This document shows, one piece after another, positions 409 to 25,895 of a stretch of 27,458 nucleotides of DNA. Where the stretch lies: assembly GCA_046758445.1 (NCBI GenBank), contig JBHIAE010000037.1, positions 1 to 27,458 of the forward strand, given 5' to 3'. The number at the start of each line of letters is the position of its first letter. Position 1 is the stretch's first letter. The DNA is from Candidatus Thorarchaeota archaeon (GTDB taxonomy: Archaea; Asgardarchaeota; Thorarchaeia; Thorarchaeales; Thorarchaeaceae). A program made the position numbers and the translations under genes. Under the pieces are notes generated by a model. The model made no database searches. It saw only the letters and a program-made list of their open reading frames with translations, and had not been told where the DNA came from.

Positions 409-3400
409 TCAACCCTTGATTCTACTAATCCTCTGCTTGACAACAACTATCACAACGACCGTAGCAAAGCCACCCAACATGATACCGGCCGACAACACCA
501 AAAGCACATTGAACCCGACATAAGTTCCTGTGCCCTCTTCAGAGGGCGGATCGATGTGGAACTGAATCATGTCAACGGCCTGCAGATCATCCAGTGTTGC
601 TGTGCAGTAAACCAAGTATATGCCCTTCTCTAGCCCCAGCTCATGCATGGTCTGCTCAGTAGTGAATATGTAGACACCCGAACCGGACTCCTCCTCGACC
701 AAGGTAACAGTCATGATGAATTGCTCAGAACCACCACCATTGTCATCGTCGTCATTGTCGTCATTGGGTGCAGGACCGTATATGGTTGCTGTGACATTCG
801 CGCCAGACACAGGATTGCCTGTGGCTGCGTCTGTCAAGAGGGCCGCCAGCTGAAGGTGGATTTTCTCCTTCAACAGGAAATCGAAGCTGCCACTCAGTTC
901 AAGATCCAGCACCTCCACAAGGCTCCAAGCCCCGAGGACAGTGACCTTGAAGACACCCCATTGCACATTACCGAGAGTGTCGTTCACCCATACCTTCAGT
1001 CCATAGACACCTTCAGAGAGTGGTGTCACCTCAGTGACAAGACCATAGATATCAACTTGGAAGTGGGCGGTGTCATTCAGCCACCAACTATCAAGACCAG
1101 ATAGGTCTGACGCAACAAGCTGGTAGCTCAGACTTTCGCCGTATTCTAGCGTCTGATCTAGGAGTGAAGCGCCCCACTCAGGCGGCGTCGTGTCAACCAC
1201 AGTCACTGTGATCCTCGCAGAGAGTGTGTTGCCGTAGATGTCCGAAACATGGATGGTCACACCATAGTTCCCTGGTGTCAGCACGCGGACGGTTCTGAGA
1301 CGCCCGGCCCAGTCTATAGCGAAGAGCCCATTCTCAACTGACCAGCGACCTAGTTCAGAAAGATCCGAGGCCTCGAGCTCGTAGAGAAAGTCCTCGCCAA
1401 ACTCGCTTGTTTGATCAGTGGGCACCACAATCCAGCTGGGAGGCGTAGTGTCCTGTACAATGATTCTGAAGGTAGCGCTGGCGTAGTTGTCGTAGGGATC
1501 GATTGCGCGAACCTCTATCCAGTATTCTCCGACCTCGAGACGTGTAGCGTTTACAATGACCCCATTACCGTCGATGAAGAATCTGATGGTGTCATTGATC
1601 CACCATTGGTGTATGCCAGACAGGTCGTATGCAAACAGCTCATAGCTGAAGGTATCGCCAAACTCTACTGTCCTATCTGATGGAGTCTGGATCCAGACAG
1701 GATCAGTGGTATCTACAACCAAGACACGGAACTCAGCGGACCTGTAGTTGCCATAGATGTCATACACACGCACCTCCAGTGAATAGACTCCAACGGCATG
1801 AAATGTGGAGTTCGTGATGACGCCGTCTTCGTCAATCACAAACCCTTCAGTTACGTTGAGCCACCAGTAGTCTACGCCAGAGAGTTCTGTCGCGTCCAGA
1901 TCATATGCGAAACTGGTTCCAAACTCTACTGTCTGTGTGACTGGCATTTCCACCCACGATGGAGGAGTTGTATCTATCACAGTGATAGTGAACTCTCCGC
2001 TCAATACGGCTCCACGCGTGTCATTTACTGACACGTTCAGCCCGTACGATCCCACAGGCACCAATCCAATACTGGTAATGACTCCGTTGCTGTCGATGCT
2101 GAAGTAGGTCGTGTCATTCAGCCACCAAGCATCCAAGTTCCAGAAGTATTGGACCTCAGTTTTGTAGCGGAAAATGTCACCAAACTCCAGTATCTGGTCA
2201 GCAGGAGGAGTCAGCCAGCGGGGCATCATGAGAGGGTGGGGATCCTGGTTGTTGTAGAAGGTGTGAGGAGTATCGCCAAAGCTATCCCCGTCGGCATCTA
2301 TTCCGGTGTAGTCCGAATAGAAGTTATAGTCGAAGGTGTTGTAGCTTCCGCGACTATCGTAGGCATTGGTCGTGCTATTTCCAAATACATTCCAGGTCAC
2401 ACTGTTGCGGTCTGAATAATAGAGATAGATTCCATAATCGCGGTTGTTGATACAGGTGTTGTTGGTCAGAGAACTGTAGTGGCTACGATAGAAGTAGATT
2501 CCGTATCGACTGTTTTCAGTACAGGTGTTGTTTCTTAGGATGTTGTGTGATCCATAGGAAGAAATGATTCCATAATCACGGTTCTGTGAACAGTCATTGT
2601 CTTCAATGACAATACTAGTGCACCGGTACATCCGGATACCGGCGTTAGTATTCCCTGTTAATACATTGTTTCTTGCGACAATGTCCGAGCATGTGGTCAG
2701 TAGAATTCCATAACGGTTCTGTGTGCATGTATTATCTTCTATGACAATGTCCGAGGATACGTACAGGTCAATTCCAGAAGAGTAACTACTTGTACAGTTG
2801 TTCCCGCTGATGAGTATAGAACTGGACCCATAGAGCCGAATGCCGTATTCATTCGAGGCACAAGTGTTGTTGATGAGTTGGCCGTTTGCGACCCCATCCA
2901 AGTAGATTCCTACGTAACTGTCATGCAGCAAACAGTCACGGATGATGAAGTTCACGCTCGTTGCTCGGACATAGATGCAGTAGTAGTATGATCCAGCGCT
3001 GATATCGAGGTACTCTATGCGGTAGGGATCAGTCGGAGTCCCGGAGCCCGGCCATCCCTGGTTCGCAAAGGACGCATCGCCAACCAGATAGATGCGACCG
3101 TGAGGGATGTACATGTCCACCGCCACCACAAAAGCTGCTGTTGCGACATTCCCAAGAGTATCATTTACTGACACCTGAATGTCATAGAGACCCTTGATCA
3201 GCGGCTTCACGTTGGTGATCACACCGTCTTGGTCTATCGTGAAGTTCTCATAGTTGCTCAACCACCAAAGTTCGATTCCTGACGGGTCATACGCATCTAG
3301 GTCGTAGTACAGGTCCTCTCCAAGCTCTAGACGCTGATTCCCTGGTGACAATACCCATTCGGGTGGTAGATTGTCCTGTACCGTGATGCTGAACTCGGCA

Positions 3401-6015
3401 GTTATGACATGTCCAGCTGTGTCATTTGCGTATACCGTTAGACCATAGCTCGAGCCAAAGGGTAGGAATGTGGAATTGGTGATCATTCCGTATTGGTCGA
3501 CCATAAAGTGCGCAGTATCATTGACCCACCACTCGTCGATTCCGGGGTAATAGGCAGTAGCGTCGACATCGTAGGCGAATACATAACCGTAATCAGCTAC
3601 CTGATCAGTGGGATACACCAACCACAACGGAAGTGCGCCAGGCGGCAGCATCATAGGATGGTAGTCCACTGGACGACTTCCATATCCGGGAATCGCATAT
3701 GGAGTGTCTCCGATGCCATTATTGTCTTCATCTGTGGTTCCAGTGTATTGGGAGTAGTAGTTGTGGCTGAAGACGCTACCATAGGTGCGATAGGCAAATG
3801 CGTCCTGAGTGTTGTTGGCAAACACGTTCCACACGACTACGTGTTGACCCTCTGCACTAGAATAGTCGTAGATGTAGATTCCATATCTGTTTCCGATGCA
3901 TGTAGTGTTGGCTATCGTGACGTTAAATGATCCCGTCAAGTAGATACCCCACTCGACATGATTGTTGAAAGTGTTGTTGGCCACCATGCAGTGACTTGAT
4001 CTATACATGTATAGTCCATAGAAGGTGGAGCCTGAGCAATTGTTGTTGATTATCACATTGAAGCTGGAGTATGAGGAGGAGATATAGCCTCCCGTACAGT
4101 CGTTGTCGCTTATTCTATTGTATGAGGCACTGCTAAGACCGATTCCTAGAACAGTATTGTTGCTGATAGTGTAGAAATGCGAGTATGACAAATAGATGGA
4201 CGTTGCACTGTTGTTAGTGACTGTGCCTGAATCAGATCGATAGAATCTCAAACTGCCTCCAATGTCGTTCTGTCTGACTGTGCTAGAACCGGAATAGTGG
4301 AACTCAACGTTCGCAGTGCAGTTGTTACGAACGACACTAACATGACTCGAGTACCTAATCGAGATGCTATAGTACCCTCCGGACACTGTGTTGTTGTATA
4401 TTGTATTATTAGCTGCATAGTAGAAGCGGATTCCATCGTTCGTGCCGGAAGCTAGGAGATTGTGCGAAACAATGTTGAACTGGCTTACATCAGAGAAATA
4501 GAAGCCAATCGTAAAGCCAGTGCAGTTGTTGCTGGTGATGATACTGTGGCTCGTGTTTGAGAAGTGGATTCCGTAAAAGTTGCCGATGAGTGTGTTGTCT
4601 GAGATGACAGCGTTGGACACATTGTGGAGGTATATGGCCGCATGCGGATATGTAGTGGCCCCACCAAGCGTACAATTGCGAATCTCGAAATGAACGCGGG
4701 TATGCGTAATGTAGATGCAGTAACCTCCAGTCCCGTACAAGTTGATGATCTGGTCTTCAATGATGAAGGGATCACCTTCAGTCCCGGTACCAGGCCATCC
4801 CTGCGTTTCAAAGTCTTCGTCAGATTCGATGACTATTGGAGGGTTGGGACAGAATTTCACATCCACGGTGAAACTGGCTTCTAGTATGTTGTTGTAAGTG
4901 TCATTCACAAAGACTCGAATACCGTATAACCCTCCGTAAAGGAAGGTTGCGTTTGTGATTACACCGTCGCCATCGATGGCAAAGTTGACCGTGTCATTGA
5001 TCCACCAGGTATCCAAGCCGGAGAGGTCCTGGGCGTTTAAGTCATATGTGAAATTCCTCCAGGACAATACCCTCCTATTGCTTGGAATGCCAACCCAGCT
5101 TGGAGGAGTTGTATCATGAACAGTCACCGTGAACGTTGACATCTGAGTGAGACCTAGTGTGTCATTGACCCAGACTTTGAGACCGTACTTGCCCACAGGC
5201 AGAAGTACCACATCTGTAATAACACCGTCCACATCAATGGCAAACCTCGCGGTGTCATTGAGCCACCACCTGTCAAGACCTGACAAGTCAGTTGCATTGA
5301 GGTCATAGTAGAAAGAGTCACCAAACTCGACAGTCTGATCAGTGGGCTCTTCTACCCACTCTGGTGGTGCTAGGGCATCGACGTCAATCCTTATTGTCGC
5401 AGTACAATAGTTGTGTGAAGGGTCGTAGGCCCTTATCTCGAGCCAATATACGTCCGGCGTTAAGTATGTAGCGTTTGTGATGAGTCCATTGATGTCGACA
5501 GAGAAGTGCGTGTCATTCACCCAGTAGTGATCAATACCTGCCAAATCGGTCGCGTTCACATCATAGACAAAGGGTATACTTTCCTCAAAGTGGTGATCGC
5601 CAGGGACCTCGTCCCAAGTGGGGCTAGTCGTGTCTTGGACTGTCACTCGAAATGTCGCACTGCAGTAGTTGTCGTATATGTCATAGGCCCTCAGTTCGAG
5701 CCAATAGATACCCACAGTCAGGTCGGTCGCATTTGTGATCAGACCGTCACCATCAATGCTGAACTGAGTATCATTGACCCAATAGTAGTCGATTCCAGAA
5801 ACATCCGAGGCCCCAATATCATAGCTGAATGCATCTCCGAACTCCACGATCTGGTCAACGGGCTGGAAGTCCCAAGTGGGCGGAGTGACATCAATGGAGA
5901 AACTCCAGACAGATGAGAAATCACTCAAATCGCCCTGAGAATCGTTGGCGAGGACCCGCCAGTACCATATGCCCTCCGCCAACGGTGACGAAGGAGTGTA
6001 GGTCGTGGCACCCAC
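409..6015 (-). CDS. C-terminal part of the giant surface protein: 11 Ig/cadherin-like repeats, two right-handed beta-helix (NosD/CASH-like) domains, C-terminal domain and TM anchor
   Basis: Repeated ~86-aa 'DTTPPxW..P.DQ..EFG..F.YDL.A.D.SGID.WW.NDT..F.ID..G.ITN...L..G.Y' units, 'NN.C..N.YGI.L..S' beta-helix repeats, and a hydrophobic C-terminus with a basic tail (KQRISRIKG). Confidence 0.85.
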   Translation of the reverse strand: MGATTYTPSSPLAEGIWYWRVLANDSQGDLSDFSSVWSFSIDVTPPTWDFQPVDQIVEFGDAFSYDIGASDVSGIDYYWVNDTQFSIDGDGLITNATDLTVGIYWLELRAYDIYDNYCSATFRVTVQDTTSPTWDEVPGDHHFEESIPFVYDVNATDLAGIDHYWVNDTHFSVDINGLITNATYLTPDVYWLEIRAYDPSHNYCTATIRIDVDALAPPEWVEEPTDQTVEFGDSFYYDLNATDLSGLDRWWLNDTARFAIDVDGVITDVVLLPVGKYGLKVWVNDTLGLTQMSTFTVTVHDTTPPSWVGIPSNRRVLSWRNFTYDLNAQDLSGLDTWWINDTVNFAIDGDGVITNATFLYGGLYGIRVFVNDTYNNILEASFTVDVKFCPNPPIVIESDEDFETQGWPGTGTEGDPFIIEDQIINLYGTGGYCIYITHTRVHFEIRNCTLGGATTYPHAAIYLHNVSNAVISDNTLIGNFYGIHFSNTSHSIITSNNCTGFTIGFYFSDVSQFNIVSHNLLASGTNDGIRFYYAANNTIYNNTVSGGYYSISIRYSSHVSVVRNNCTANVEFHYSGSSTVRQNDIGGSLRFYRSDSGTVTNNSATSIYLSYSHFYTISNNTVLGIGLSSASYNRISDNDCTGGYISSSYSSFNVIINNNCSGSTFYGLYMYRSSHCMVANNTFNNHVEWGIYLTGSFNVTIANTTCIGNRYGIYIYDYSSAEGQHVVVWNVFANNTQDAFAYRTYGSVFSHNYYSQYTGTTDEDNNGIGDTPYAIPGYGSRPVDYHPMMLPPGALPLWLVYPTDQVADYGYVFAYDVDATAYYPGIDEWWVNDTAHFMVDQYGMITNSTFLPFGSSYGLTVYANDTAGHVITAEFSITVQDNLPPEWVLSPGNQRLELGEDLYYDLDAYDPSGIELWWLSNYENFTIDQDGVITNVKPLIKGLYDIQVSVNDTLGNVATAAFVVAVDMYIPHGRIYLVGDASFANQGWPGSGTPTDPYRIEYLDISAGSYYYCIYVRATSVNFIIRDCLLHDSYVGIYLDGVANGQLINNTCASNEYGIRLYGSSSILISGNNCTSSYSSGIDLYVSSDIVIEDNTCTQNRYGILLTTCSDIVARNNVLTGNTNAGIRMYRCTSIVIEDNDCSQNRDYGIISSYGSHNILRNNTCTENSRYGIYFYRSHYSSLTNNTCINNRDYGIYLYYSDRNSVTWNVFGNSTTNAYDSRGSYNTFDYNFYSDYTGIDADGDSFGDTPHTFYNNQDPHPLMMPRWLTPPADQILEFGDIFRYKTEVQYFWNLDAWWLNDTTYFSIDSNGVITSIGLVPVGSYGLNVSVNDTRGAVLSGEFTITVIDTTPPSWVEMPVTQTVEFGTSFAYDLDATELSGVDYWWLNVTEGFVIDEDGVITNSTFHAVGVYSLEVRVYDIYGNYRSAEFRVLVVDTTDPVWIQTPSDRTVEFGDTFSYELFAYDLSGIHQWWINDTIRFFIDGNGVIVNATRLEVGEYWIEVRAIDPYDNYASATFRIIVQDTTPPSWIVVPTDQTSEFGEDFLYELEASDLSELGRWSVENGLFAIDWAGRLRTVRVLTPGNYGVTIHVSDIYGNTLSARITVTVVDTTPPEWGASLLDQTLEYGESLSYQLVASDLSGLDSWWLNDTAHFQVDIYGLVTEVTPLSEGVYGLKVWVNDTLGNVQWGVFKVTVLGAWSLVEVLDLELSGSFDFLLKEKIHLQLAALLTDAATGNPVSGANVTATIYGPAPNDDNDDDDNGGGSEQFIMTVTLVEEESGSGVYIFTTEQTMHELGLEKGIYLVYCTATLDDLQAVDMIQFHIDPPSEEGTGTYVGFNVLLVLSAGIMLGGFATVVVIVVVKQRISRIKG

Positions 6016-6102: not shown

Positions 6103-8439
6103 TCATTCGAACGTGGGCGTATTGTCGTTGAGCATTGCCCCGTCAACGGGTGAGTTGAGAGAAGGCGGGTCCAGTTGAGCGTAGTAGGAGAGAGAGAGCA
6201 TGGAGAGTATTGGTGTATTGCTCCAATTCGATGTCTGAAGTTTGGCACGCCACATCAACTGATGGCCAACCTGACCGAAGCTGTGCTCAACACCCGGTGT
6301 CACCGATTCCCAGTGTGTTCCGCCATCTGCTGAGAGGTAGTAGAAGATCCCGGTATCTGAAGGTGTTGCATCTGAGCAAGTCAGTGTGGCCCGCTCGACC
6401 GTGGCGGTTGGCGAGTCAAAGACTGCTAGAGATTGCCCAAGGGCCAGAGACTCATACTGTCGCCATCTGTTATGTCTAATCTCTATGATTTGTAGACCAT
6501 CCCGTATTGCGGCGACGTAAGCATAGTCGCCAGATACGAATACATCCTCATCGTCACCGGGGAATGTACATTGCCAGGCCACCGATGGGTGCAACGGATC
6601 CTCGATGTCGATTATCTGGAGATTACCTATTTGCGTAGTAAGATACGCATAGTTGCCTGAAACGAACACATCAATGGTACCTCCTGGCAAGTCAAGATGG
6701 CTGACCAACGTAGGATGAGCCGGATCAGATATGTTAACCACTGCTAGCCCGTTCATATGGATAGCTACATAGACGAAGTTCCCTTCAACAAATACAGCCA
6801 AGGCGCCGACACTACCAATGCCTCTAGGAACATCACACATCGCTAGTAGAGTCGGCTGTGTCGGATCTGTTACATTGAAGACTTTGAAACTACCCTCTGC
6901 ATCAGCAACGTAGGCATAGTCACCCTCCACATCCACATCGAACACCCTACCTGGAGTGTTGTAACTACCAACTATCCTTGGACTTCTTGGATCTGTGACG
7001 TTGACAACCTGTAGACCCGAGTAACGGTCGGCCATGTAAGCGTAATTGCCCTCAATGTCCAGATTCATAGAGCATTCGGGTGTGTCAACCCCGCCCGCCC
7101 TTGTCAGATGAGTCGGATCAGTGGCGTTGATTATCTGAAGTCCGGAGTTGCCGTTGGCAACGTATATGTAGTCACCAACTACCTTCATACCTTGGGACTC
7201 ACGTGGTGTTCTATATGATCCGAGCATGACAGGGTTGGTAGGATTTGAGATATTCAGAACTCGCACGCCGCTGTGCCATTCATTAGTATAGGCGTAGTCA
7301 CCACTTACGAATATACCACGAGTCATCTCAAGAGTATCAATGTGGCCGACCCACCTCGGAGCGACGGGATCAGATATCCTGATGACCTGCAATCCTGATT
7401 CCCCATCCGCTATATATGCAAAGTTGCCTGCGATTACAACATCTTTCACTGTTCCGTCTGTGTCACAGGCACCCGCCCACTCTGGGTGAAATGGAGAGGT
7501 GACATTCAAAGCTATTAGACCCGCAAGTCCGTTGGCTAGGTAGACGTAGTCGCCTTCGACCGCAACTGTCCAAGCATTGTCAGCCGTGTCATATGCACCG
7601 ACGAAAGTCGGATTCTTGGGGTCCGTAATATTGAGTATTTGCAACCCATGTTCCCCATCTGCAACATAGGCGTGATCGCCAGCAATCCAAACGCCTGAAG
7701 CCTGCTGAGGAATGCCACATGTTCCCGCCAGTACCGGACTTGCCGGATTCGTTACGTCAATTACTGCCAGTCCGGAGGCATTGTCAGCGATATATGCAAA
7801 GTTCCCCTCCACGTAGAGATTCATTGCATTCCCTGGAGTCGTGCAAGCCCCGGCCCACGTCGGTGATGTGGGAATGCTGATATTCACGGCCACCAGTCCT
7901 GTAGGATAGTCAACCAAGTACACGATGTCCCCTGTCACCCATAGATTGACCGCCGAACCGGGAGTGTCAATGGACGCCTCTAAGGTTGGGAGTGTGGGAT
8001 TGCTGATGTTGACTACCTGCAGTCCCGTTGTGCCAGCGGCCACATATGCGAAATCTCCCCAGATTGACACTGCCGAAGCATCACCTGATGTTTCACAGTT
8101 CCCGGCCAGAGTTGGGTGAGCAAGGTCTGTAATGTTGACCACCTGCAGCCCTGCTGATCCATCGGCAACATAGGCGAAGTCCCCCGCTATTGCGACTCCC
8201 ATGGCATCACCACCTGTGTCGTAGCCACCCACTAGTAGAGGATTACTGCGTGGGAGTCTTAACTCCCCTGTTCCCCAGCCTGTGGCATTTGTGACTGCGG
8301 CATCCTCAAAGGTCGTAGTCGTAAAGTCTTCAGTGTAATGAAGAGTTGCCGCTTCTACTGGACTAGGTCCCAGAAGTGCAAGAATCAACAGACCAGCTAG
8401 AAACGCTAGAATCATTCTTTCATGCAGGTTCAGAACCAT
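6103..8439 (-). CDS. N-terminal part of the giant surface protein: signal peptide plus 14 LVIVD repeats (probably two 7-bladed beta-propellers)
   Basis: Signal peptide MILAFLAGLLILALLG...VEA, followed by 14 copies of 'G.YAYVADG..GLQVVNI..P..P..(VG)..DT'. Confidence 0.85.
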   Translation of the reverse strand: MVLNLHERMILAFLAGLLILALLGPSPVEAATLHYTEDFTTTTFEDAAVTNATGWGTGELRLPRSNPLLVGGYDTGGDAMGVAIAGDFAYVADGSAGLQVVNITDLAHPTLAGNCETSGDASAVSIWGDFAYVAAGTTGLQVVNISNPTLPTLEASIDTPGSAVNLWVTGDIVYLVDYPTGLVAVNISIPTSPTWAGACTTPGNAMNLYVEGNFAYIADNASGLAVIDVTNPASPVLAGTCGIPQQASGVWIAGDHAYVADGEHGLQILNITDPKNPTFVGAYDTADNAWTVAVEGDYVYLANGLAGLIALNVTSPFHPEWAGACDTDGTVKDVVIAGNFAYIADGESGLQVIRISDPVAPRWVGHIDTLEMTRGIFVSGDYAYTNEWHSGVRVLNISNPTNPVMLGSYRTPRESQGMKVVGDYIYVANGNSGLQIINATDPTHLTRAGGVDTPECSMNLDIEGNYAYMADRYSGLQVVNVTDPRSPRIVGSYNTPGRVFDVDVEGDYAYVADAEGSFKVFNVTDPTQPTLLAMCDVPRGIGSVGALAVFVEGNFVYVAIHMNGLAVVNISDPAHPTLVSHLDLPGGTIDVFVSGNYAYLTTQIGNLQIIDIEDPLHPSVAWQCTFPGDDEDVFVSGDYAYVAAIRDGLQIIEIRHNRWRQYESLALGQSLAVFDSPTATVERATLTCSDATPSDTGIFYYLSADGGTHWESVTPGVEHSFGQVGHQLMWRAKLQTSNWSNTPILSMLSLSYYAQLDPPSLNSPVDGAMLNDNTPTFE

Positions 8440-16858: not shown

Positions 16859-16926
16859 CTGTTAACCTCACGAAAGAGGTGAGCATTTGCCAATTTTAGC
16901 ATTCTTCGTCTGAGTGCCACGTACTG

Positions 16927-17181
16927 TTATTCAGAACGCTTGTCTTGCGACATGATACACTTCAGGAATATGGCAAGCAGTATGAAGACAGGCAGCGTAA
17001 GCGAGAGTGTCAAGACGGGAAAGAACCCCGGCGGGAAGACTATTGCAAGGAGGGTCAGTATCTGAATAAGACCAAAGACTACGACCAAGACAATCAGACA
17101 TTGGACTTGGAGCTTCAGACTTTGAAGTTGATTCAACACTCCGCCTCTACCTGTTGTCCCTTCCGACCCTTCATCAGACAC
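16927..17181 (-). CDS. Small 2-TM hypothetical membrane protein
   Basis: 84-aa ORF with two hydrophobic helices and a GGAGG RBS upstream. Confidence 0.6.
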   Translation of the reverse strand: MSDEGSEGTTGRGGVLNQLQSLKLQVQCLIVLVVVFGLIQILTLLAIVFPPGFFPVLTLSLTLPVFILLAIFLKCIMSQDKRSE

Positions 17182-17300
17182 GAGTCATTCCCTCCAGCTA
17201 CGGACGTTCAGTAATCGCTATTCAATTCTTGCTCCCACACTCCTGCAGGGAAAGGCTTGGCGAAGAAGAGCGCAAGATCACCACTGATGAACAGAGCTGT

Positions 17301-17408
17301 CTAGCTTACGGAAGAGTTCCGAAGAATCTTGAAGGCCGTGACCTCCGCCCAGACCAAAGGAAAGGCCACTGCTAAACGCTGGAGCAAACCCGTAAATGCC
17401 TCTAGACT
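17301..17408 (-). pseudogene. 3' fragment of a DUF998-family membrane protein gene
   Basis: Not in the ORF track. Manual translation gives SLEAFTGLLQRLAVAFPLVWAEVTAFKILRNSSVS*, matching the 'GLxQR...W' last helix of DUF998 proteins. It has no start codon and an upstream in-frame TAA at 17418-17420. Confidence 0.7.
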
Positions 17409-17463
17409 CTCGCTTCCTTATCAAGGAGAGCCTACTGTCTGCTCCCATGCTAGCTAAAGAAGG

Positions 17464-20400
17464 CTACTGTTCATAGAACGTGACACCTTTCTCCTCAAGG
17501 GCCTGCTTGACCTCCTCTCTTATCACACTGAGTAAGTCTTCATCAATGCCATATGGTGTGAGACTAGCATTCACCTCAGTATCAACATGTTCTGAGTCGA
17601 TGGCCCCAGCAAACTGGGAGTCATTGAGACATCCGTTGACATCACTCACCACGTATACATGCGGACTATCCCCGTCATCTGACTCCAAGAATACAACGAC
17701 CACCGTACGAGGTCGCTCCTTCCTGACCTCAAGTCCCTTGTACCTGAAGACGAGCGTTTCATCGTACAATGGAATGACCTCATCCAAGGACGACTTGAAC
17801 TCCTCATATCTCTCAAGGAGAGTCACTCTGTGGACTCCCAGTTCATTATCGAGATTGCTAAGATGAGAGAGAGGAGCAATCGCCTCGACCTCCTGACGGA
17901 ATACCTCTAACTCTTTGTCAGGCGGGGTACCCGGGGTCAGTATGAACGTGAATGTCCTGTTCCTCCACGGTCTGCCCGTGGTCCCGGAGATGATGGTCCA
18001 GAACAACTCGTTGCCTATAATCCTAGTCGATAGAAGCCATGTATCTCTTGACCAATCGAACTCGCTTACATCGGCTTCCCGAACTGCTTCCTCAAGCCGT
18101 GGGTAGTCGTGGAGCTTGCCGAAACTCACGTCCATGATGGCATTGACGTTGAGAATGAACGGATGCCACATTCTACTATCAGGGTCGAAGAGCTCCCTGC
18201 ACTCGGCTAGCAGTCCAAGAGCATGGACATCGAATCCAACCTCCTCCAGTCCTCTCAGGGAAGAGTCCTGTGGCAGGTCCTCTAGTTCGATCCTAAAGTT
18301 ACTATCTTCCTGACGGATGACCATGGTGATCTCATTCCCAGCGGTCGAAGCGAGCAGCTCCTTACACGTCCTTGGGTAATGAAACTCATCAGGATAGAAC
18401 CAACTTCGATGGACCAGAGGTTTCAGGAAGAAGAGGGAGTCGCCGCCATAGTCGATATCCCTCTTGTGATCCCAAGTGAGTGTGTTTCCCTGTGACCGAT
18501 GTCCCCCTCCTAGACGGACTGGCAACCTGAGGAATCGTACAAGTTCTCCAGTCCTTGAGAACTCAAGTCGTTCTTTGATAGAGTTTCCATGAAGCTCGAC
18601 CTCGTAGACCTTCTTGTCATTGTTGACACTGACCATCAGCTCCACGGGTATCGTCCTGTGCCTGACTCGTGCGAGCCTCCTGAGCGCCTCAGCGACGGAG
18701 TCTGGAACTGCGGGCACACTACCAGGGGAAGCAAGAGGGACTGTTGTTTCTAGTTTTAGCCAAGGAACTCTATTCCATCGTCCACTGGGTTTGCCATGCA
18801 CCAGAGAGAATGAAACCCATTGGAGATCGTCGTCATACTCGGTCAATACTGGTACCCAGAGGACCTTGGTTTTCAGGACCGTGGTCATGACAAGAGGAGT
18901 TGCATCGGTGGACAGTAGAGCCTCTTCTGCGAATCTCTTCATGTCCTGAGGGGCCGTCGCGCAGGCATGCCACTTTGGTGGGATCCATCTATCTCCGAGG
19001 CCCTTGACTAAACCTGTTAGAAATCCATCCTCATAGGGTATGAGGAGCAGAGCATCGAACCCGAACTCGGACTCCCTCCAGACGACAGCACCGACCTGTT
19101 CTTGTTCAATAGCCCTCTCAGGGAGATCGAGCTGCACAAGCGTCCTAGCACGTGTCCTGAGGTTGGAGAGGATTGCCTGAAAGCTATAGACCGACCTTGA
19201 TTCGCCGTCCTGGATGTTCATCCCGAGCTGGTAGAGTGTCCACTCGGCCACGGAGGACCAGAGATGTTCAGCAATGGATAGATTCCTGCCCTCAAGGGCG
19301 GCCAAGACAGCAAGGAACAGGTTGTTGCCATACAGGAGGAGGACGTCAGGGGTCATCTCCATGACATCCTCCATGGCCAGTCTGTTCTCTGAGTTCAAGA
19401 GGTCGAGAAGCCCCTGCCTGAGTGGAACGAGGTTCCTCCAGACTTCTACTCTCTTGGGGTCCTCAAGAATGGTCTTCCGAATCTTCCTGAGTGCATCAAG
19501 GAAGAACTCTGGTGTCTTCATAGAGGGGTCTTCTTGGATGATGGCGAACTGCTTTGCACAGAACCGTTCTATCCTCCTACAGCAGTCCCTCAGGCTCTTT
19601 GTGAGGTGACTCCGGTCGCTCAGATGCCGTGTCGCATAGTAGAGCCGCCTGAGTTCTAGTTCACGGGTTTCGATTGTGTCTATCTCTCCTGCCCCTGTGT
19701 CCCCCACCACTGGGGGATAGGAAGACACAGCATGTGCATCCTCATCTTCTTGAAACTGCTTTGGTGTCCGTTCATAGAACCAACGTCTGGTAATGCTGTT
19801 TTCAGAGTCGGTGAAAACATCAGTGTATCTCTTCTCTCCTCTTCTTGGAGTCGGTGGAGGTCTCTTGACATCGAGGACCATTCTATCACCCATTGTTGAC
19901 CCGCCATCTGAACTCACAGTCTGAATGACTGACTGCCAAGGAAGTCCTTCTGAGGGTGGCTCTTTCCCCACCTCCTCTTCAGAAGACGCAGGAACTCTAC
20001 ATCTTAGGACACTTGGTGCCAGAGTCAGTGCATCCTCTAGGACCTTGGAGAATGAGTCGTACGAGAGTCTACCAGTAGATGCATAGATCTCAGAGAGGGT
20101 CACTCCTCTTCCATGCATGGATGTGATGTGAGTGGTGTATGATACCATTACATCAGGAACGACGATCTTATCCCGCTTGGCAAGCCCTCTGAACTTCTCT
20201 GCAAATCCCACCAGCTGTGGCACATGGATTGCGACGCTCCAGGGGTCTGCCTTGGCAGGAGTGTCCTGCACGATGATTCGGACATCTTCCGCCTGTGGAG
20301 TCAACCATCCAAATCTCGAAGGCATTGTAGGGATGTTATAGATGATCTCGTCGAGGTGGGTCCTGCGGGGTGAGTCATGCCTGACAGGACTGACACCCCT

Positions 20401-23037
20401 CCGTTGGTAGTGGCAGTTCATTCGAGTGTGCGACACACCGCTGTCAATCCAGATGATGTTGATATTGGACTGTGGCAGAGTGTCAAGCATTCGTTGCTCA
20501 AGGGCACGGACCAGGTTCTGTTGATATCTTGGAACCATATCTCGGAGTTCTGTCCACCCATCGAGAACTACGATACGTTCACCATTCTCCTTCTCAGGAA
20601 GGACGGTCTCGATGTGTCTGACTAGCCTATCAAGTGCCTCTGCTCCCTCTATGATGATTTCATTGATATCAGTACTCAGGTCCAAGAACCTGATGGACCT
20701 GAGGGTTGAAGTGAGCTGTCGATGAACTCTCTTGGGTATCATCTGCTCATGCAGCAGGGCATCAAGTCCGAACCGTCTTCTGACCAGTTCATCCGTCTTG
20801 TAGTCCCCCATGAGGTCCAACCACACGACCTCCTCTATGGGTGTAGGGGATGTTTCGATACACTCTTGGACATGATGAAGGAGATGCCAGTCCCGCGAGA
20901 ACCTTGCTGCAGTGATTCCCGAGGAGGTCGGAGAGGGAATGGACACATAGAGTGTGAGGACCCGGGCATCCGTTTCTCGATCAATGAAGGGGTCTTCCAC
21001 AGGCAGACTGCCTGGACTGACCATCTCTTGGAGGAGTTCAGTGGGTCCTCTTGAGGGAGCAACAAGCAAGGCCACTCTGGGAGCATCATCTCCGGAACTC
21101 AGGGGTCCTGGCACAACCGAGATAGGGGTGTCCTGTTCGACAATCTGATGGAGGAGTCCTGTCATCAGGTCTTCAAGGAGATAGTGAAAGGCGGGGAAGA
21201 CCTCAATCGGACTCTGGTCTGTGTCCAAAACAATGACTCCCTTCCAGAGTGATGTGGGAGGGGTTGGATCGTGTACGGCAATCCTCTTGTACTCGTCGAG
21301 GACCTCGAGTTCGTAGTCCCTAAGCTGCTCAAGAGCGCTCTTGTCTGGACCTGATGTGACGAGGGTCTTCCATTCGTCATCGCTCATTGCACGTTTCCAT
21401 GCATAGAAGGCAGGAACGACCGAGGTCTTCCATTTTCGCTTGATCCGCATACCATAGAGGTTGAAATCAAGGGCAGTCTTGGTCTTGATCTCCAGGACCA
21501 TCACTGGTGTCCACAGGATTCGTCCTGCAATCTCCCGCCTGATGAAGATGGTGAGGTCCACTTGTCCCGAGCGTCTTGCAACAGGTAGCTCAGCGACCAC
21601 AAGAACGGATGCTAGTGAGTCGAGCATCTTGTCCCCTAAGAATGCGACTTGTTTCAGGGACGCTGGATGATGGAGGTCTGAGAGGAGTATCCTGTGCCAT
21701 TCGTTGCCCTCTCGCTGGCTGAGAAACAGGACCTGTTCAACAAGCTTCTCTACATCCCGGTCCAATATGTATCCGGCGTTAATATCAAGATAGTCAAGGA
21801 GTTTCAGCCAACACTCTCGTACAGTCTGGTCACTTGTCCTCGTTAGCTGCTTGACAATCTTCTCTCGGACCTCCTGGAAGGCCGTCTTATCACTGTGGTC
21901 TTCTAGCGGCCAAGTATCAGTATAATCAAGCATCTTTTGCAGGGACTTGCGCTCGGTCGTGTTGGTTGTCCTTTCCAACCGCCTAGCGACTTTTCCTCGT
22001 ATCTGTTCGATTGTCTTCTTGACATCTTCGTCAGCAACTAGTCCCGTGTCAATGTAGTCGAGGAACTCTAGTAGAAACCTTTGCTCATCCAAATCAGTGG
22101 TGTTCGCTAGCTGCTTGATGACCATCTTGCGGACCCTTTCAAGGGATAGATTTATGGAATTCTCTCCATGTCTTTTGGAGATGCGTTGACGGGACCTGGT
22201 TCGCTTCTTGTATAGCGCCCGGATTTCAAGGACTATCTTCCTGAGCTCGTGGTCAGCATGAGGATTGAAGTTCGGTCGTCCCTCTTGTCCATCAGTGTAT
22301 ATCCAGTCAAGGAAGGGTCTTAGTCGATGGATGAGGAGTCTGATGTAACGATGTGCCTCGGTCAAAGGTACGTGATAGATGAAACATTGCCTACAGAGCT
22401 CGACGCAATGCGCCCTGATCATGTCCACAAAGTCTAGTCCAGGCAGGGTGGGATGAGCAAGAAATATGCGTGGACTCTTTCCCTCCCTCTCATAACCATA
22501 TCGCCAATAGACTTTGACTGCGGTATCATCCACAATCTTGTCAGCCTCTATCTTGGTGAGGGTCTTCTTGCTCCCGTCAGGATATTCCCGGATCTGAAAT
22601 GCCAGTGGTCGTGGAAAGGGGTATAGGATCATTGCAAGGTCACGGAGCCGTGCACCTGCGTAATTTAGTAACGCATTGAGTGGACCGACAGTGCCCTCCA
22701 ACCAGCTATAGACTCGCTTGAACTCTCTGTTGCCGTATCGCTTGGTGCTGGTCCACACAATCTTGAGAAACTGACCCCGCATGTTTGGTTCGGCATTCTG
22801 TACGGGAGAGAAGTCTGTCTGGCTCAAGCCCTTCTGTTCTTCAAGGGAATTCCGGACCGAGACCCAAATCTTCTTGATGCTCTGACAGTACCTGCGGGTC
22901 TTCCTGCTGACTCTGTTCCGGGCAAGTCGATTTAGTGCCACGAGACCCATGTAGATTGCGGTACTGAGGATACCAGGTGAGTTATTGATCTTTCCTTTTC
23001 TACCCCTCATCAGTGTCACATAGACAAGACCTGTCAA
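17464..23037 (-). CDS. Giant uncharacterised protein (~1850 aa) with helical repeats, a PD-(D/E)XK nuclease domain and a degenerate RecA/KaiC-like P-loop domain
   Basis: Motifs E483..GQVD494..LE516IK518..Q571LRDY, 'LYVSIPSPTSSGIT' (Walker A-like, K->I) and 'RIVVLD826G' (Walker B-like). Numbering is from 23037. The true start may be ATG 23010, about 30 nt below a TTATAT box. Confidence 0.8.
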   Translation of the reverse strand: MTGLVYVTLMRGRKGKINNSPGILSTAIYMGLVALNRLARNRVSRKTRRYCQSIKKIWVSVRNSLEEQKGLSQTDFSPVQNAEPNMRGQFLKIVWTSTKRYGNREFKRVYSWLEGTVGPLNALLNYAGARLRDLAMILYPFPRPLAFQIREYPDGSKKTLTKIEADKIVDDTAVKVYWRYGYEREGKSPRIFLAHPTLPGLDFVDMIRAHCVELCRQCFIYHVPLTEAHRYIRLLIHRLRPFLDWIYTDGQEGRPNFNPHADHELRKIVLEIRALYKKRTRSRQRISKRHGENSINLSLERVRKMVIKQLANTTDLDEQRFLLEFLDYIDTGLVADEDVKKTIEQIRGKVARRLERTTNTTERKSLQKMLDYTDTWPLEDHSDKTAFQEVREKIVKQLTRTSDQTVRECWLKLLDYLDINAGYILDRDVEKLVEQVLFLSQREGNEWHRILLSDLHHPASLKQVAFLGDKMLDSLASVLVVAELPVARRSGQVDLTIFIRREIAGRILWTPVMVLEIKTKTALDFNLYGMRIKRKWKTSVVPAFYAWKRAMSDDEWKTLVTSGPDKSALEQLRDYELEVLDEYKRIAVHDPTPPTSLWKGVIVLDTDQSPIEVFPAFHYLLEDLMTGLLHQIVEQDTPISVVPGPLSSGDDAPRVALLVAPSRGPTELLQEMVSPGSLPVEDPFIDRETDARVLTLYVSIPSPTSSGITAARFSRDWHLLHHVQECIETSPTPIEEVVWLDLMGDYKTDELVRRRFGLDALLHEQMIPKRVHRQLTSTLRSIRFLDLSTDINEIIIEGAEALDRLVRHIETVLPEKENGERIVVLDGWTELRDMVPRYQQNLVRALEQRMLDTLPQSNINIIWIDSGVSHTRMNCHYQRRGVSPVRHDSPRRTHLDEIIYNIPTMPSRFGWLTPQAEDVRIIVQDTPAKADPWSVAIHVPQLVGFAEKFRGLAKRDKIVVPDVMVSYTTHITSMHGRGVTLSEIYASTGRLSYDSFSKVLEDALTLAPSVLRCRVPASSEEEVGKEPPSEGLPWQSVIQTVSSDGGSTMGDRMVLDVKRPPPTPRRGEKRYTDVFTDSENSITRRWFYERTPKQFQEDEDAHAVSSYPPVVGDTGAGEIDTIETRELELRRLYYATRHLSDRSHLTKSLRDCCRRIERFCAKQFAIIQEDPSMKTPEFFLDALRKIRKTILEDPKRVEVWRNLVPLRQGLLDLLNSENRLAMEDVMEMTPDVLLLYGNNLFLAVLAALEGRNLSIAEHLWSSVAEWTLYQLGMNIQDGESRSVYSFQAILSNLRTRARTLVQLDLPERAIEQEQVGAVVWRESEFGFDALLLIPYEDGFLTGLVKGLGDRWIPPKWHACATAPQDMKRFAEEALLSTDATPLVMTTVLKTKVLWVPVLTEYDDDLQWVSFSLVHGKPSGRWNRVPWLKLETTVPLASPGSVPAVPDSVAEALRRLARVRHRTIPVELMVSVNNDKKVYEVELHGNSIKERLEFSRTGELVRFLRLPVRLGGGHRSQGNTLTWDHKRDIDYGGDSLFFLKPLVHRSWFYPDEFHYPRTCKELLASTAGNEITMVIRQEDSNFRIELEDLPQDSSLRGLEEVGFDVHALGLLAECRELFDPDSRMWHPFILNVNAIMDVSFGKLHDYPRLEEAVREADVSEFDWSRDTWLLSTRIIGNELFWTIISGTTGRPWRNRTFTFILTPGTPPDKELEVFRQEVEAIAPLSHLSNLDNELGVHRVTLLERYEEFKSSLDEVIPLYDETLVFRYKGLEVRKERPRTVVVVFLESDDGDSPHVYVVSDVNGCLNDSQFAGAIDSEHVDTEVNASLTPYGIDEDLLSVIREEVKQALEEKGVTFYEQ
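21742..22143 (-). repeat. Three tandem ~44-aa helical repeats inside the giant protein
   Basis: LERVRKMVIKQLANTTDLDEQRFLLEFLDYIDT / IEQIRGKVARRLERTTNTTERKSLQKMLDYTDT / FQEVREKIVKQLTRTSDQTVRECWLKLLDYLDI. Confidence 0.8.
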
Positions 23038-23259
23038 TTGATATAAGTACTTTCGTGGGTAATCTAAAATACTCTAAATCAAGATTAAAGCGCGTATATC
23101 ACTTTTTTGCGGGAAAAAAGCATGGATAGCAATTAATCTTAATAAATTTATATACAACTCTACTATACAATTGTACGAGTTCAAAACCCCTTTCTTGGAC
23201 AAGAAGAGGAGTGAATTCGACTGACTGAAACAGGTCAGGAATTTATATACAAAGGCGGG
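23038..23259. promoter_or_regulatory. AT-rich divergent promoter region with archaeal TATA boxes
   Basis: AATTTATATACAA occurs twice (23145-23157 and 23240-23252, + strand). GAAAGTACTTATAT lies on the minus strand ending at 23041. A CTTTTTT-GCGGG-AAAAAAG inverted repeat is at 23102-23120. Confidence 0.65.
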
Positions 23260-24936
23260 ATGGCGATGGCTCCTTCCACAGGTGTGACAATCGCGGTTAA
23301 GGTTCCCATCAACTGGGAAGTCATGACCACGAGGACTAGGCAGCGGCTTAGACAGACCGTTGGACGAGATACTCGAGTGATACACGCTTTCCTTGGAATA
23401 ATCGAACAGCATGAAGACGAATTGTTAACAGGCAGAAACAGGATTGATGACGGCAAGCTGGATCAGTTGACCATGACAGCGCTCAAGGTCAAGTCTGGCT
23501 ACGAGAAACGACCATGTGTTCCACATGACTTCAAAGTCCGATTTCCTCGGATCTCTCAGAACGAGATGACCGAGTGTCGACAAACTGCTGTCGCGCTCTA
23601 CGAGGGCTATCTCGGACTCAGGACGAAGACAGGGAGAAAGGTTTCACGCCCAGCATCGACCAATAGCAGCCGAAGGATACCTCGGTGGGTCTTTTCCCAG
23701 AGATTCAGACTCATTGAGAATGAAACCTCCGCCTCTCGATGGTGGCTTGACATCAGGGACTCTCTTGACTCTGTTCAGGAAGAACGAACACGCCATGACC
23801 GTTTGAGCATCCCCCTCAGAATGTCGCCCTTCCATCTGAACCAACTCAGACGTGGTGAAGTGAAAGCAGTGCAGCTCTTCACTGATAGAAGAAGGAAGTG
23901 GTGGGCAACGATTGCGGTCAGGGTTGATGTTGATGAATCTCCTAAGAACAACCTTCCTGTTTGCATCATTGGAGTTGACCTTGGTATCGAGAAAGCCGCC
24001 TGCTCGACCCTCCTCACTCCTGAGAAGACAAGAGAGACTCGATACTTTGTCCAGAGAGAGAAGGTCAAGTCTATCAAGAAGTACGATAGGCTTGTGGCAG
24101 ACCTACAGAGAGAGATGTACACTAGAAAGAACAACGGAGATCCCTACGATGAAGTAGCTAGGCGGCTCCGTCGACTGCGTTCCAAGAGAGAGAATGTTGC
24201 CCGAGAGTATGACAGGGTACTTGTGCGTCATATTCTTGACTATATCTCGGAACTGTCCAGGAGGTACACACTCTATGTCGCCATTGGTCGCCTGAAGAAC
24301 ATGCGAATGCGTGCGAAGCGAGGGAACTACAAGGGTCGAAGGTTCAGAGGAATGATCCATTCTTGGGCCTTTGCTCGGATTACCAACAGTCTGAAACATG
24401 GACTTGCTCAGCTTGGATGGAAGGTCGATGGAAAGGATGCCCGGTTCAGAGCTGTTCCTGAGGCGTGGACCTCCATCATCTGCTGGAAGTGTGGCTGCAA
24501 GGGTAGGAGACCCAGACAGAATTACTTCCACTGTCCATCGTGTGGACAGAAGACCAATGCTGACCGAAATGGTAGTATCAACATCGCCGCACGCATGCTC
24601 ACGCTCACAAAGTCATTGCACTCTGTGAGAGGACTAGGTCTGTGGACTAGAGCCTTAGATAAGGCTCGACGTGCGCGACTGAAAGCCCGAAGGAAGAGAA
24701 CTTCTCAAGGGAAGTCCTTACTCTCCAAGAGAGGACCTGCATCAAGTCCCGGAGAGTCCGCGGCCGTTCACTATGTCCAGTTGGACCTCTCCAGCTTTGG
24801 TGACGAGGCTGGAGTGAGTGATGATGACCCTGCCGTGGGAAGAACTGTGAAAGTTCTCACTGTCGCTGGGAGTGATGGCCCGGCATCAGGAAAGGAGAAG
24901 GAGGCCAGGTCTGGAGGAGGGATCCCGTCCCGATGA
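23260..24936 (+). CDS. tnpB: TnpB-family RNA-guided endonuclease (IS200/IS605/IS607 OrfB; Cas12/Fanzor relative) with rearranged RuvC-II
   Basis: RuvC-I IIGVD240LG, RuvC-II position VAIG343RL, alternative Glu VPE401AWTS, zinc finger C408xxC411...C425xxC428 and RuvC-III NAD435RNGSINIA. Confidence 0.92.
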   Translation: MAMAPSTGVTIAVKVPINWEVMTTRTRQRLRQTVGRDTRVIHAFLGIIEQHEDELLTGRNRIDDGKLDQLTMTALKVKSGYEKRPCVPHDFKVRFPRISQNEMTECRQTAVALYEGYLGLRTKTGRKVSRPASTNSSRRIPRWVFSQRFRLIENETSASRWWLDIRDSLDSVQEERTRHDRLSIPLRMSPFHLNQLRRGEVKAVQLFTDRRRKWWATIAVRVDVDESPKNNLPVCIIGVDLGIEKAACSTLLTPEKTRETRYFVQREKVKSIKKYDRLVADLQREMYTRKNNGDPYDEVARRLRRLRSKRENVAREYDRVLVRHILDYISELSRRYTLYVAIGRLKNMRMRAKRGNYKGRRFRGMIHSWAFARITNSLKHGLAQLGWKVDGKDARFRAVPEAWTSIICWKCGCKGRRPRQNYFHCPSCGQKTNADRNGSINIAARMLTLTKSLHSVRGLGLWTRALDKARRARLKARRKRTSQGKSLLSKRGPASSPGESAAVHYVQLDLSSFGDEAGVSDDDPAVGRTVKVLTVAGSDGPASGKEKEARSGGGIPSR

Positions 24937-25084
24937 TGACGGACAATGCTCTTGCTAATTCTGAAATCCTTTGGATTTCGGAAGGTGGTGACACTGGCAG
25001 GAGAGGGGCGGAACACAGGAGTTTCTTGCTGTCGTGGTTCACTCACCACGAAATGTAAGATATGGGTTATCTCGAACATGTAGA
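24860..25084 (+). ncRNA. Putative omegaRNA (reRNA) scaffold / right-end region
   Basis: A series of hairpins follows the tnpB 3' end: 24925-24942, 24959-24983 (11 bp), 24990-25033, 25032-25051 (7 bp perfect) and 25053-25079. The position matches known TnpB omegaRNAs. The 5' boundary is a guess. Confidence 0.55.
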
Positions 25085-25234
25085 AGACGCGTATGGTGCG
25101 TCGACGGCACCTAATTCGCTCATGGACTGACTGATGGGATCATACCCCGGCTCAAGTAACCCTAGGCCGACTAGGACTACCGCGTAGATTACTGGGCCTA
25201 CGATTCCTGCCATGACGAGTCTGGAGCGTTCCAT
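25067..25234 (-). pseudogene. 5' fragment of a DUF998-family membrane protein gene
   Basis: MERSRLVMAGIVGPVIYAVVLVGLGLLEPGYDPISQSMSELGAVDAPYA has the DUF998 'PGY....xSELG' signature. It then runs into unrelated sequence (SSTCSR*) after about 50 aa. Confidence 0.8.
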
Positions 25235-25346
25235 TGTATCTATCACGTCTGACTCCGCTGCATATATCTCTTTGACTTCATGGTAGTGGCCGGAACAGCA
25301 AATCAATTACCACAATCCTGTGTAGTGAGAGCATTGGGGAAGACGT

Positions 25347-25895
25347 ATGAGAGAGATAACATTCGAACCCCGGTTGGCCAAGCGCTTACAGAAACAGTAT
25401 CGGATGGAGAAGCCTCCAGCCAACCTGACTGAGCTCATCGAGTTTACCAAGGCACAGGTGTTGGCGACACCCGGAGGGCGGGAGCAGATCGCTTCCATCC
25501 GCGAGGGCAAAGTGACGATCGGGGAAACAGACTTAGACCGCGGGCAGTCCATCGTTTCGTCAGACGGACGCGAATTGAAGGTCATGTGCGGTTACGACTC
25601 CCTTGCGACAGCTCTGCTGCGCGGCGAGGGCCTTGTCAGGGCCACGTGCTTCCATTGCGGCGAGAAGATGGAGATAGAGATCAAGGACGGCGAACTTGTT
25701 CGCGCCTCCCACCCTTCGATTCGCTTTTGGTTTGGGGACGGCCCCAAGGGCATCTCCGTGTGCGACCACTACAACTTCTTCCCAGATCAAGAACACCTTG
25801 ATGGCTGGCTCGAAACGAACCCTGAGGAGCTTGGTGTCGCGCTCTCCCTTGACGAGGCCATAGAATTCATGGAGCTCTCCCACGAGGGATTGTGA
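25347..25895 (+). CDS. merB: Organomercurial (alkylmercury) lyase MerB-like protein
   Basis: MCGYD (catalytic Cys/Asp), 'ATCFHCGEKMEIEI' and 'VCDHYNFFPDQEHLDGW' match the MerB core motifs. Confidence 0.75.
   Translation: MREITFEPRLAKRLQKQYRMEKPPANLTELIEFTKAQVLATPGGREQIASIREGKVTIGETDLDRGQSIVSSDGRELKVMCGYDSLATALLRGEGLVRATCFHCGEKMEIEIKDGELVRASHPSIRFWFGDGPKGISVCDHYNFFPDQEHLDGWLETNPEELGVALSLDEAIEFMELSHEGL

Follow-up and report, generated by a model that had tools for sequence, protein, structure and literature searches.

Cas1, the CRISPR spacer integrase, and TnpB, the ancestor of Cas12, are mobile-element enzymes and are regarded as the sources of CRISPR adaptation and of type V interference. 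The Cas1 homologues of Asgard archaea, termed aCas1, are said to have been named by Makarova et al. in 2020 in CRISPR J. The TnpBs associated with these proteins form two Asgard-linked groups, Cas1H-Asgard-1 and Cas1H-Asgard-2, in the accessible portion of Altae-Tran et al. 2023 (PMC10691335), which proposes aCas1 as the transposase and reports a conserved GTTCACTCA motif downstream of tnpB and loci that are "often" flanked by repeats. The same portion of that text gives no domain map of the giant aCas1 protein, no element ends and no insertion sites, and no experimental paper on aCas1-TnpB elements was found in the searchable literature. Here we describe such an element in a 27,458-bp stretch of a Candidatus Thorarchaeota genome (contig JBHIAE010000037.1 of assembly GCA_046758445.1; hereafter the window), where a block of 7,662 bp carrying a giant gene and a tnpB gene interrupts a DUF998 gene. 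The source assembly (G000) is 3.25 Mb in size and 92.7% complete, and the window is its contig C37.

The block is a member of the aCas1-TnpB kind that was catalogued computationally in 2023, and it is matched by the published description as far as the available text extends. Shared with the loci described there are the Asgard (Thorarchaeota) host, the Cas1 homologue beside tnpB, the two TnpB groups (558-aa and 719-aa clades in the family of the window), the GTTCACTCA motif and the multicopy, mobile behaviour; the window copy differs in being left-truncated, in carrying a serine recombinase remnant and in having no flanking repeats. A preliminary description of this DNA had suggested an undescribed element, which the groups and the motif in the accessible text of PMC10691335 contradict. 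Its list of TnpB partners (Y1 transposase, serine recombinase, or TnpB alone) is out of date for Asgard archaea, and nothing in the analysis points to the defence cassette that it considered. The window does not establish a new kind of system. It adds exact ends, a pair of empty sites, candidate catalytic residues placed on a domain map, evidence of recombinase decay in one sub-lineage of giants, and a separable TnpB-guide cassette, for an element in which Cas1-like and TnpB enzymes travel together in the archaea closest to eukaryotes. New for this copy are its start inside the recombinase gene, the separable cassette, and the replacement of about 324 bp of target by a sibling copy in the same genome. 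The reading that we prefer, at a rough probability of 50%, is that 17412-25073 is one decayed copy of a Thorarchaeota aCas1-TnpB transposon family with an aCas1-based mechanism.

In a congener (contig G071:C313, locus L061) the DUF998 gene is uninterrupted over about 200 codons, and the insertion site was therefore formerly empty. Both window pieces align to it, 17320-17412 with L061 818-910 (95% identity) and 25089-25282 with L061 1268-1461 (87% identity). The minus-strand frame from 25234 to 25089 encodes the 49 residues MERSRLVMAGIVGPVIYAVVLVGLGLLEPGYDPISQSMSELGAVDAPYA, with a weak match to profile positions 1-38 of Pfam DUF998 (PF06197; E 2.7e-5, below the curated cut-off), and the minus-strand frame 17411-17301, with its stop at 17301, encodes ESLEAFTGLLQRLAVAFPLVWAEVTAFKILRNSSVS. 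The alignment bears out the preliminary description in that one gene is split by about 7.7 kb, with its parts on the same strand and in the right order. Contrary to that description, the insertion did more than separate two halves: 343 bp from the middle of the gene, which belong between 25088 and 25089 by comparison with L061, are absent from the window, and 15 bp (GAACATGTAGAAGAC, 25074-25088) stand to the right of the element. In G071:C313 these 15 bp are contiguous with the left flank CTAGACTCTC. With a slash at the boundary, the left junction reads ...CTAGACTCTC/GCTTCC and the right junction ...GGGTTATCTC/GAACATG. The target was entered at ...CTC/GAACATG; apart from a 4-nt ambiguity (TCTC) where element and target meet, no target duplication is seen, and neither terminal inverted nor direct repeats were found at the 17412 and 25073 ends of the window element.

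The boundaries of the block were obtained twice, from the empty site in the congener and from the sibling, a second copy in the same genome that is 87-88% identical, is split over contigs C102 and C36, and has both boundaries in common with the window copy. The neighbourhood of the giant was compared in 43 loci, 40 fetched from other genomes and 3 of distant homologues. A divergent gene lies directly upstream of the giant in 43/43, and in 42 of them it was confirmed as a member of the TnpB family. It is a tnpB of the 558-aa (window) clade in 25/40 loci, with a spacing of mostly 230-260 bp (about 250 bp in the window), and a 719-aa TnpB-family gene in the same position in 15/40 (L021, L023-L026, L030-L033, L035, L038, L046, L047, L050, and L056; PF07282, E 3e-12 to 9e-14). 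The 719-aa clade has about 27% identity to the window TnpB, is alignable with it over the C-terminal ~130 residues, and occurs beside giants of several sub-lineages. Among the distant homologues PF07282 was detected in 2/3 divergent neighbours; the third (P0165) is cut by a contig end and fell outside the scan. Because of the empty site in the congener, the second copy in the genome and the divergent upstream gene in every locus of the sample, the giant and tnpB are shown to have entered the DUF998 gene as one piece, as the preliminary description had proposed.

The same observations bear on a chance pairing, in which a TnpB insertion sequence landed beside a giant gene already in place, and on misassembly at the junctions. 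A chance pairing would fit the TnpB block 23137-25073, which is a discrete cassette that also occurs solo (contigs C15, C4, and C70). The chance pairing is already contradicted by the linkage counts with their fixed orientation and spacing; further, the entire 7.66 kb is missing from the DUF998 gene of the congener, the second copy has both boundaries in common, and both flanks match one gene in the correct order and strand. We regard either origin as extremely improbable.

A set of 5.8 billion proteins holds 64 relatives of the giant, all from Asgard bins and labelled Thorarchaeota, Lokiarchaeota or Promethearchaeia; 182 were found among 1.84 billion representative proteins, each of them a similar giant or a fragment, and that set yielded no distant relative with an annotation. 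The giant is present in 52/87 genomes of the class, often in pieces and in several copies, and first-look candidates number up to 39 in one genome. The source genome carries more distant giant and tnpB pairs on contigs C85 and C2. In a decayed cluster on its contig C38 (G000:C38:145-1869), a TnpB zinc-finger region (145-378) is accompanied by a giant fragment that contains a stop (922-1398) and by 100 codons from the N-terminus of a serine recombinase (1584-1869).

Searches of Pfam, of PDB sequences and of Atlas features with the giant were all empty, and its domains were assigned from AlphaFold models built on 41-sequence alignments (residues 1-1010, predicted local distance difference test (pLDDT) 80 and predicted template modelling score 0.77; residues 1011-1848, pLDDT 83). 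In an exhaustive structural comparison of the predicted model, residues 4-254 matched eleven Cas1 or casposase chains at VIA Z scores of 12.4 to 10.3, scores that rest on a predicted model and that helical domains can reach by chance. The best matches are 8flj_A (Z 12.4; 179 residues aligned, root-mean-square deviation 4.5), 4w8k_A (Z 11.6) and 4n06_B (Z 11.5), followed by 7kft_D (Z 11.1), the casposase 6opm_A (Z 10.8), and 7mi4, 2yzs and 6qxf; the matches restricted to residues 4-254 were to Cas1 and casposases only. A single planned profile-profile comparison (hhalign) with 11 Thorarchaeia Cas1 proteins gave one sole local match (P 0.011), which pairs GTVGPLNALLNYAGARLR with PPNNPVNALISFGNSLLY, the Cas1 signature N-A-L-x-x-(Y/F)-G; the giant motif at this signature is GPLNALLNYAG. 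The extended alignment places E74, N112, H186, D193, and D196 of the giant opposite E167, N200, H231, D243, and E246 of Cas1 (alignment A5), and among 46 sequences there is no variation at N112, H186, and D196 and almost none at E74 and D193. Residues E74, H186, D193, and D196 are a candidate active site. From the model and these conserved positions, the N-terminal domain of what had been called a giant PD-(D/E)XK protein is very probably a Cas1 homologue, an aCas1. The N-terminal beta-sandwich domain of Cas1 is absent, the matches begin at Cas1 residues ~87-123, and the giant opens directly with the helical domain.

Residues ~415-620 are a candidate nuclease domain of the RecB/Cas4 type. Residues D485, K509, Q562, and Y566 are invariant and E507 nearly invariant in alignments A1 and A2, D485 and E507/K509 lie on consecutive beta strands of the model, and the motif order D485, E507-x-K509, Q562-x-x-x-Y566 is the strand order of RecB/Cas4-type nucleases; unlike Cas4, with its four Fe-S cysteines, the domain has no conserved cysteines. 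Residues 680-990 resemble RecA, DnaB, and RAD51 paralogues (Foldseek E ~4e-4; VIA Z 10-11) and fall in Atlas clusters with the KaiC, AAA_25, and DnaB_C families. Their Walker A motif is degenerate (SPTSSGxxAA, no lysine), and for this reason nucleoside triphosphate hydrolysis is doubtful. For the C-terminal half (residues 1011-1848, ~850 residues) no confident fold match was obtained in the structural searches, the weak matches being to the HIV reverse transcriptase connection subdomain (Z ~5) and to polymerases (E 0.02-0.06). Within it, residues ~1108-1280 contain the motif LLLYGNNLFL and, from the model, may be a degenerate second Cas1-like domain or a case of generic helical packing. Between the Cas1-like and nuclease domains, residues 321-410 (window ~21781-22050) form an insertion of ~90 residues with three helical repeats (..LEFLDYIDTG.., ..KMLDYTDTW.., ..LKLLDYLDIN..), which is absent in most homologues.

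With casposons (e.g., PDB 6opm) the element shares a Cas1-fold catalytic domain with conserved E/H/D positions, and some relatives of the window element lie at tRNA 3' ends (L045, L048, L046, L047, and L023), as casposons do. Unlike casposons, it lacks a family B polymerase, a target duplication of 14-15 bp and long terminal inverted repeats. Its giant is five times larger, starts without the N-terminal beta domain of Cas1, includes fused nuclease and RecA-like domains, and is always paired with TnpB. The aloposons of Heimdallarchaeum (Wu et al. 2022, PMC8813620) are likewise Asgard mobile elements with giant genes; these genes stand in tandem and encode proteins of 3,000-6,000 aa, a ParA-like ATPase is also present, and integration takes place at tRNA genes. 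Identity with aloposons was rejected, since the architecture differs and TnpB is absent from the main text of PMC8813620.

The TnpB of the window (558 aa) falls just below the PF01385 cut-off of 30.5 bits (28.0 bits, E 2.8e-6). Residues D240, E401, and D435 and the zinc-finger cysteines (CxxC...CxxC) are invariant among 27 clade members; G343 stands at the usual RuvC-II Glu position, and the RuvC Glu is therefore taken to be relocated to E401. Between the end of tnpB and 25073 (170 nt), 10/17 predicted pairs of the guide RNA show compensatory changes in 19 aligned loci, and no Rfam family matches it. The published motif GTTCACTCA is present at 25037-25045, within GGTTCACTCAC at 25036-25046, and CACTCA is invariant in the 19 loci. 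Because D240, E401, and D435 are invariant and the guide RNA stems covary, TnpB appears active. Sequence following the right end would supply the guide; for 25074-25093 there is no other near match in the genome with at most 4 mismatches adjoining CTC.

TnpB and its guide RNA behave as a unit that can be separated from the giant. The left boundary of this cassette lies at 23137-23139 in the solo copies on C15 and C70, and the diverged solo copy on C4 aligns from 23260 only. A boundary at 23137-23142 recurs in pairs with distant giants (L027, L041, L043, and L036; 68-77% identity), and L022 combines a giant close to that of the window with a distant TnpB. Internal deletions that keep the far left end were considered as a source of the TnpB-only copies and rejected, because these copies start at 23137.

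In the sub-lineage of the window giant, the full-length order is left end, IS607-type recombinase gene, giant (convergent to the recombinase), tnpB (divergent from aCas1), guide RNA, and right end. Both large genes of the window copy are open, with catalytic residues kept. Under the reading that we prefer, the Cas1-like giant would join the element ends to new DNA, and its RecB/Cas4-like nuclease and RecA-like domains would process DNA ends. The guide RNA would be read from the right end into the flank, directing TnpB to cut element-free copies of the occupied site, and repair after such a cut would restore or spread the element, a form of retention proposed by analogy with studied TnpB systems. 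The TnpB-guide cassette (23137-25073) may be a module exchanged between elements.

The window copy opens within the final 13 codons of the recombinase gene (tnpA), at the A codon in ...ASFSGRVY..., and the left end and nearly all of tnpA are therefore lost. It is probably no longer mobile in cis, because its left end is missing. Intact recombinases of 204-206 aa (PF00239, with an N-terminal helix-turn-helix) are convergent to the giant in L024, L025, and L026, and remnants adjoin it in L021, L023, and L056; these traces, in 6/40 giant loci, all fall in the sub-lineage of giants nearest the window, which is tied to IS607 recombinases and in which the recombinase gene decays repeatedly. The sibling keeps recombinase codons 124-202 (C36:2907-3142; tblastn E 1e-16 to 5e-20). 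This genome has no intact serine recombinase (no PF00239 match; a further remnant is on C38) and no match to Y1 TnpA (PF01797), and among the 87 genomes of the class Y1 was found in 4 and a resolvase in 23. The preliminary description had called the element transposase-less and had seen only the giant and tnpB in it; both genes are there, but 13 recombinase codons remain at its left edge, and in its closest relatives the gene survives whole (3 loci) or in longer pieces.

The left end missing from the window is preserved in the sibling (C36:3143-3260), where the terminus reads AGTCATTTCTTACAGAATTCTAGATAATC. Homologous sequence precedes the intact tnpA gene of L024 and forms the left ends of L041 and L059, two elements that lack tnpA, so that the left terminus is conserved in elements with and without a recombinase gene. 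An 11-12-nt inverted match (TGTAAGAWATG) links the left terminus of the sibling to its right end. We favour aCas1 as the mobility enzyme of the family as a whole; we infer this because, apart from TnpB, no enzyme but aCas1 is found in every case, because conservation of the left terminus does not depend on tnpA being there, and because genome G074 has 91%-identical copies at different flanks and neither Y1 nor a serine recombinase.

Several points weigh against the preferred reading. The Cas1 assignment combines a predicted structure with a weak profile match (HHalign probability 3-4%), Pfam Cas_Cas1 (PF01867) finds neither the giant nor any of 46 N-terminal domains at E values up to 10 and has no match at the locus in the genome search, and the second helical region, at residues ~1108-1280, also matches Cas1, at Z 6.5. 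Casposases and Cas1 normally leave a target-site duplication, and there is none at either copy in the source genome. Although the element has lost its own left end, its junction on that side lines up flush with the empty site, which none of the models considered here explains. The window copy and its closest relatives carry the IS607 recombinase gene or its remains, and the junctions have a short identical core (TC/CTC) such as serine recombinases leave.

The recombinase gene and the junction core would be expected of an IS607-family transposon that is moved by a serine recombinase in cis or in trans, in which aCas1 is cargo or an accessory factor, for example in the repair of TnpB-made breaks, and from which the window copy has lost tnpA. 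The closest full-length relatives have the IS607 layout, tnpA then tnpB in one orientation with TnpB and its guide RNA at the right end; their recombinase genes are intact in L024-L026 and persist as remnants in L021, L023, L056, C36, and the window, and both the missing target duplication and the core at the two junctions are as in IS607. However, a recombinase trace occurs in just 6/40 giant loci, all in one sub-lineage, and most members of the giant family have no tnpA. Further, 64/87 genomes of the class have no resolvase match, as against 52/87 that have the giant, and G074 holds its 91%-identical copies at different flanks with no resolvase. Cargo would not be expected beside tnpB in every examined locus with conserved Cas1 motif residues. 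The elements also differ from IS607 in the 5.5-kb Cas1-like gene between tnpA and tnpB, and the window copy has 13 tnpA codons in place of a full serine recombinase (MerR-like helix-turn-helix plus resolvase domain). A recombinase-driven origin is on balance unlikely, though well short of negligible. IS200/IS605 elements resemble the family in TnpB and guide RNA at the right end, in TnpB-only derivatives, and in having neither target duplication nor long inverted repeats; they differ in their Y1 transposase, which is absent from this genome and present in 4/87 of the class.

The target sites of the two copies suggest another possibility. The sibling is inserted in a gene for a 147-aa membrane protein, with empty sites in G071:C333 and G061:C310, and replaced 324 bp of this gene in a deletion anchored at its left end. 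The targets right of the element in the window and the sibling are TCTCGAACATGTAG and CTCACACATGGTAG, which share (T)CTC-NN-ACATG. In both copies the right junction is exact and ~300 bp are lost on the left, from the left arm of the element in the window and from the target in the sibling. This is the pattern predicted if TnpB cuts a guide-like site and the element is copied in from its right end, with aCas1 aiding end processing: a precise right junction and a ragged left one, with the element truncated or target lost. The two targets are alike beyond a short motif, and the 343-bp deletion in the DUF998 gene begins 15 bp from the right end, about the TnpB cut distance; a cut ~15 bp away is established for ISDra2 TnpB. 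However, these are two events only, the similarity of their targets could be chance, and an ordinary alternative is that deletions arose secondarily in a dead gene. A simple cut-and-copy model also does not give the 15 bp right of the element, which were formerly contiguous with the left flank. We consider insertion by break repair improbable, and similarly doubtful its guide-directed form, in which the TnpB guide RNA would pick new sites, break repair would fill them, and the Cas1/RecB/RecA-like giant would process the ends; if true, the element would be an RNA-guided "cut and copy-in" transposon that occurs in nature. The coordinates of the features are collected in Table 1.

Table 1 Features of the interrupted DUF998 gene and of the inserted element, in window coordinates
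Feature	Position	Strand	Basis
DUF998 C-terminal fragment, 36 codons + stop	17301..17411	-	Left flank; translation and L061 alignment
Inserted element, left-truncated aCas1-TnpB transposon copy, 7,662 bp	17412..25073		Empty site and sibling copy
IS607-type serine recombinase (tnpA) remnant, last 13 codons ASLSRRAYCLLPC + stop	17412..17453	+	Aligns to ..ASFSGRVYELR.. C-terminus
aCas1 giant gene, 1,848 aa (P0004), frame intact	17464..23010	-	41-sequence alignment, conserved over whole length
KaiC/RecA/DnaB-like ATPase fold (predicted), residues 680-990	20041..20973	-	Foldseek, VIA, Atlas
RecB/Cas4-type PD-(D/E)XK nuclease domain (candidate), residues ~415-620	21151..21768	-	Conserved motifs and strand order in model
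Cas1-type integrase alpha-helical catalytic domain (predicted), residues 4-254	22249..23001	-	AF2 model pLDDT 80, structural matches, hhalign
TnpB + guide-RNA cassette, 1.94 kb	23137..25073	+	Common left boundary in solo copies and distant pairs
tnpB, 558 aa	23260..24936	+	PF07282 E 5.5e-12, above curated cut-off
Guide-RNA (omegaRNA) scaffold + right end, ending ...TGTAAGATATGGGTTATCTC	24905..25073	+	Alignment of 19 loci
DUF998 remnant, 15 bp GAACATGTAGAAGAC, presumed guide start	25074..25088		Follows left flank directly in G071:C313
DUF998 N-terminal fragment, 49 codons	25089..25234	-	PF06197 E 2.7e-5; 87% to L061 1268-1461

A repeat search flanking 18 other loci recovered a 60-bp imperfect repeat in L045 and L048, composed of a right-end remnant and a tRNA-Gly 3' half. 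A 14-mer repeat in L026 was taken as chance, as no inverted repeats adjoin it, and no conserved sequence was found just downstream of the giant stop across diverse loci. In L045 (G030:C22), L048 (G053:C27), L046, L047, and L023 a tRNA gene (Gly-TCC, Lys-CTT, or His-GTG) borders the element, with its 3' end against the element's right end. In L045 and L048 a 45-nt copy of the tRNA 3' half lies just past the giant stop, joined in L045 by a degenerate 30-nt remnant of the right end, and an imperfect direct repeat of 46-60 bp around the element results.

The surroundings of the DUF998 gene differ between the window and its congeners in further respects. About 400 bp of the window (16918-17319), with an 84-aa membrane open reading frame (16927-17181), are absent from G071:C313, which has 38 bp there instead; this is a separate insertion or deletion beside the DUF998 stop, and the segment has no second copy in the genome. 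A short way upstream of the DUF998 start, at ~25283-25289, synteny with the congeners ends. The merB-like gene of G071 is on another contig (C423) and C313 runs on into unrelated sequence, and neither continuation codes for the giant or TnpB. The merB-like gene of the window (25347-25895) has a paralogue on contig C2 that is 78% identical (region G000:C2:124857-136440), which comes after an ArsR-like gene and a merA-like gene and is 1.7 kb from another aCas1-TnpB pair (giant 129387-134540, tnpB 134674-136440). At the other end of the window, the minus strand encodes a 1,868-aa surface protein (409-6015) with a beta-helix, Ig-like repeats and a C-terminal membrane anchor, adjoined upstream in the same orientation by a 778-aa open reading frame (6103-8439, minus strand).

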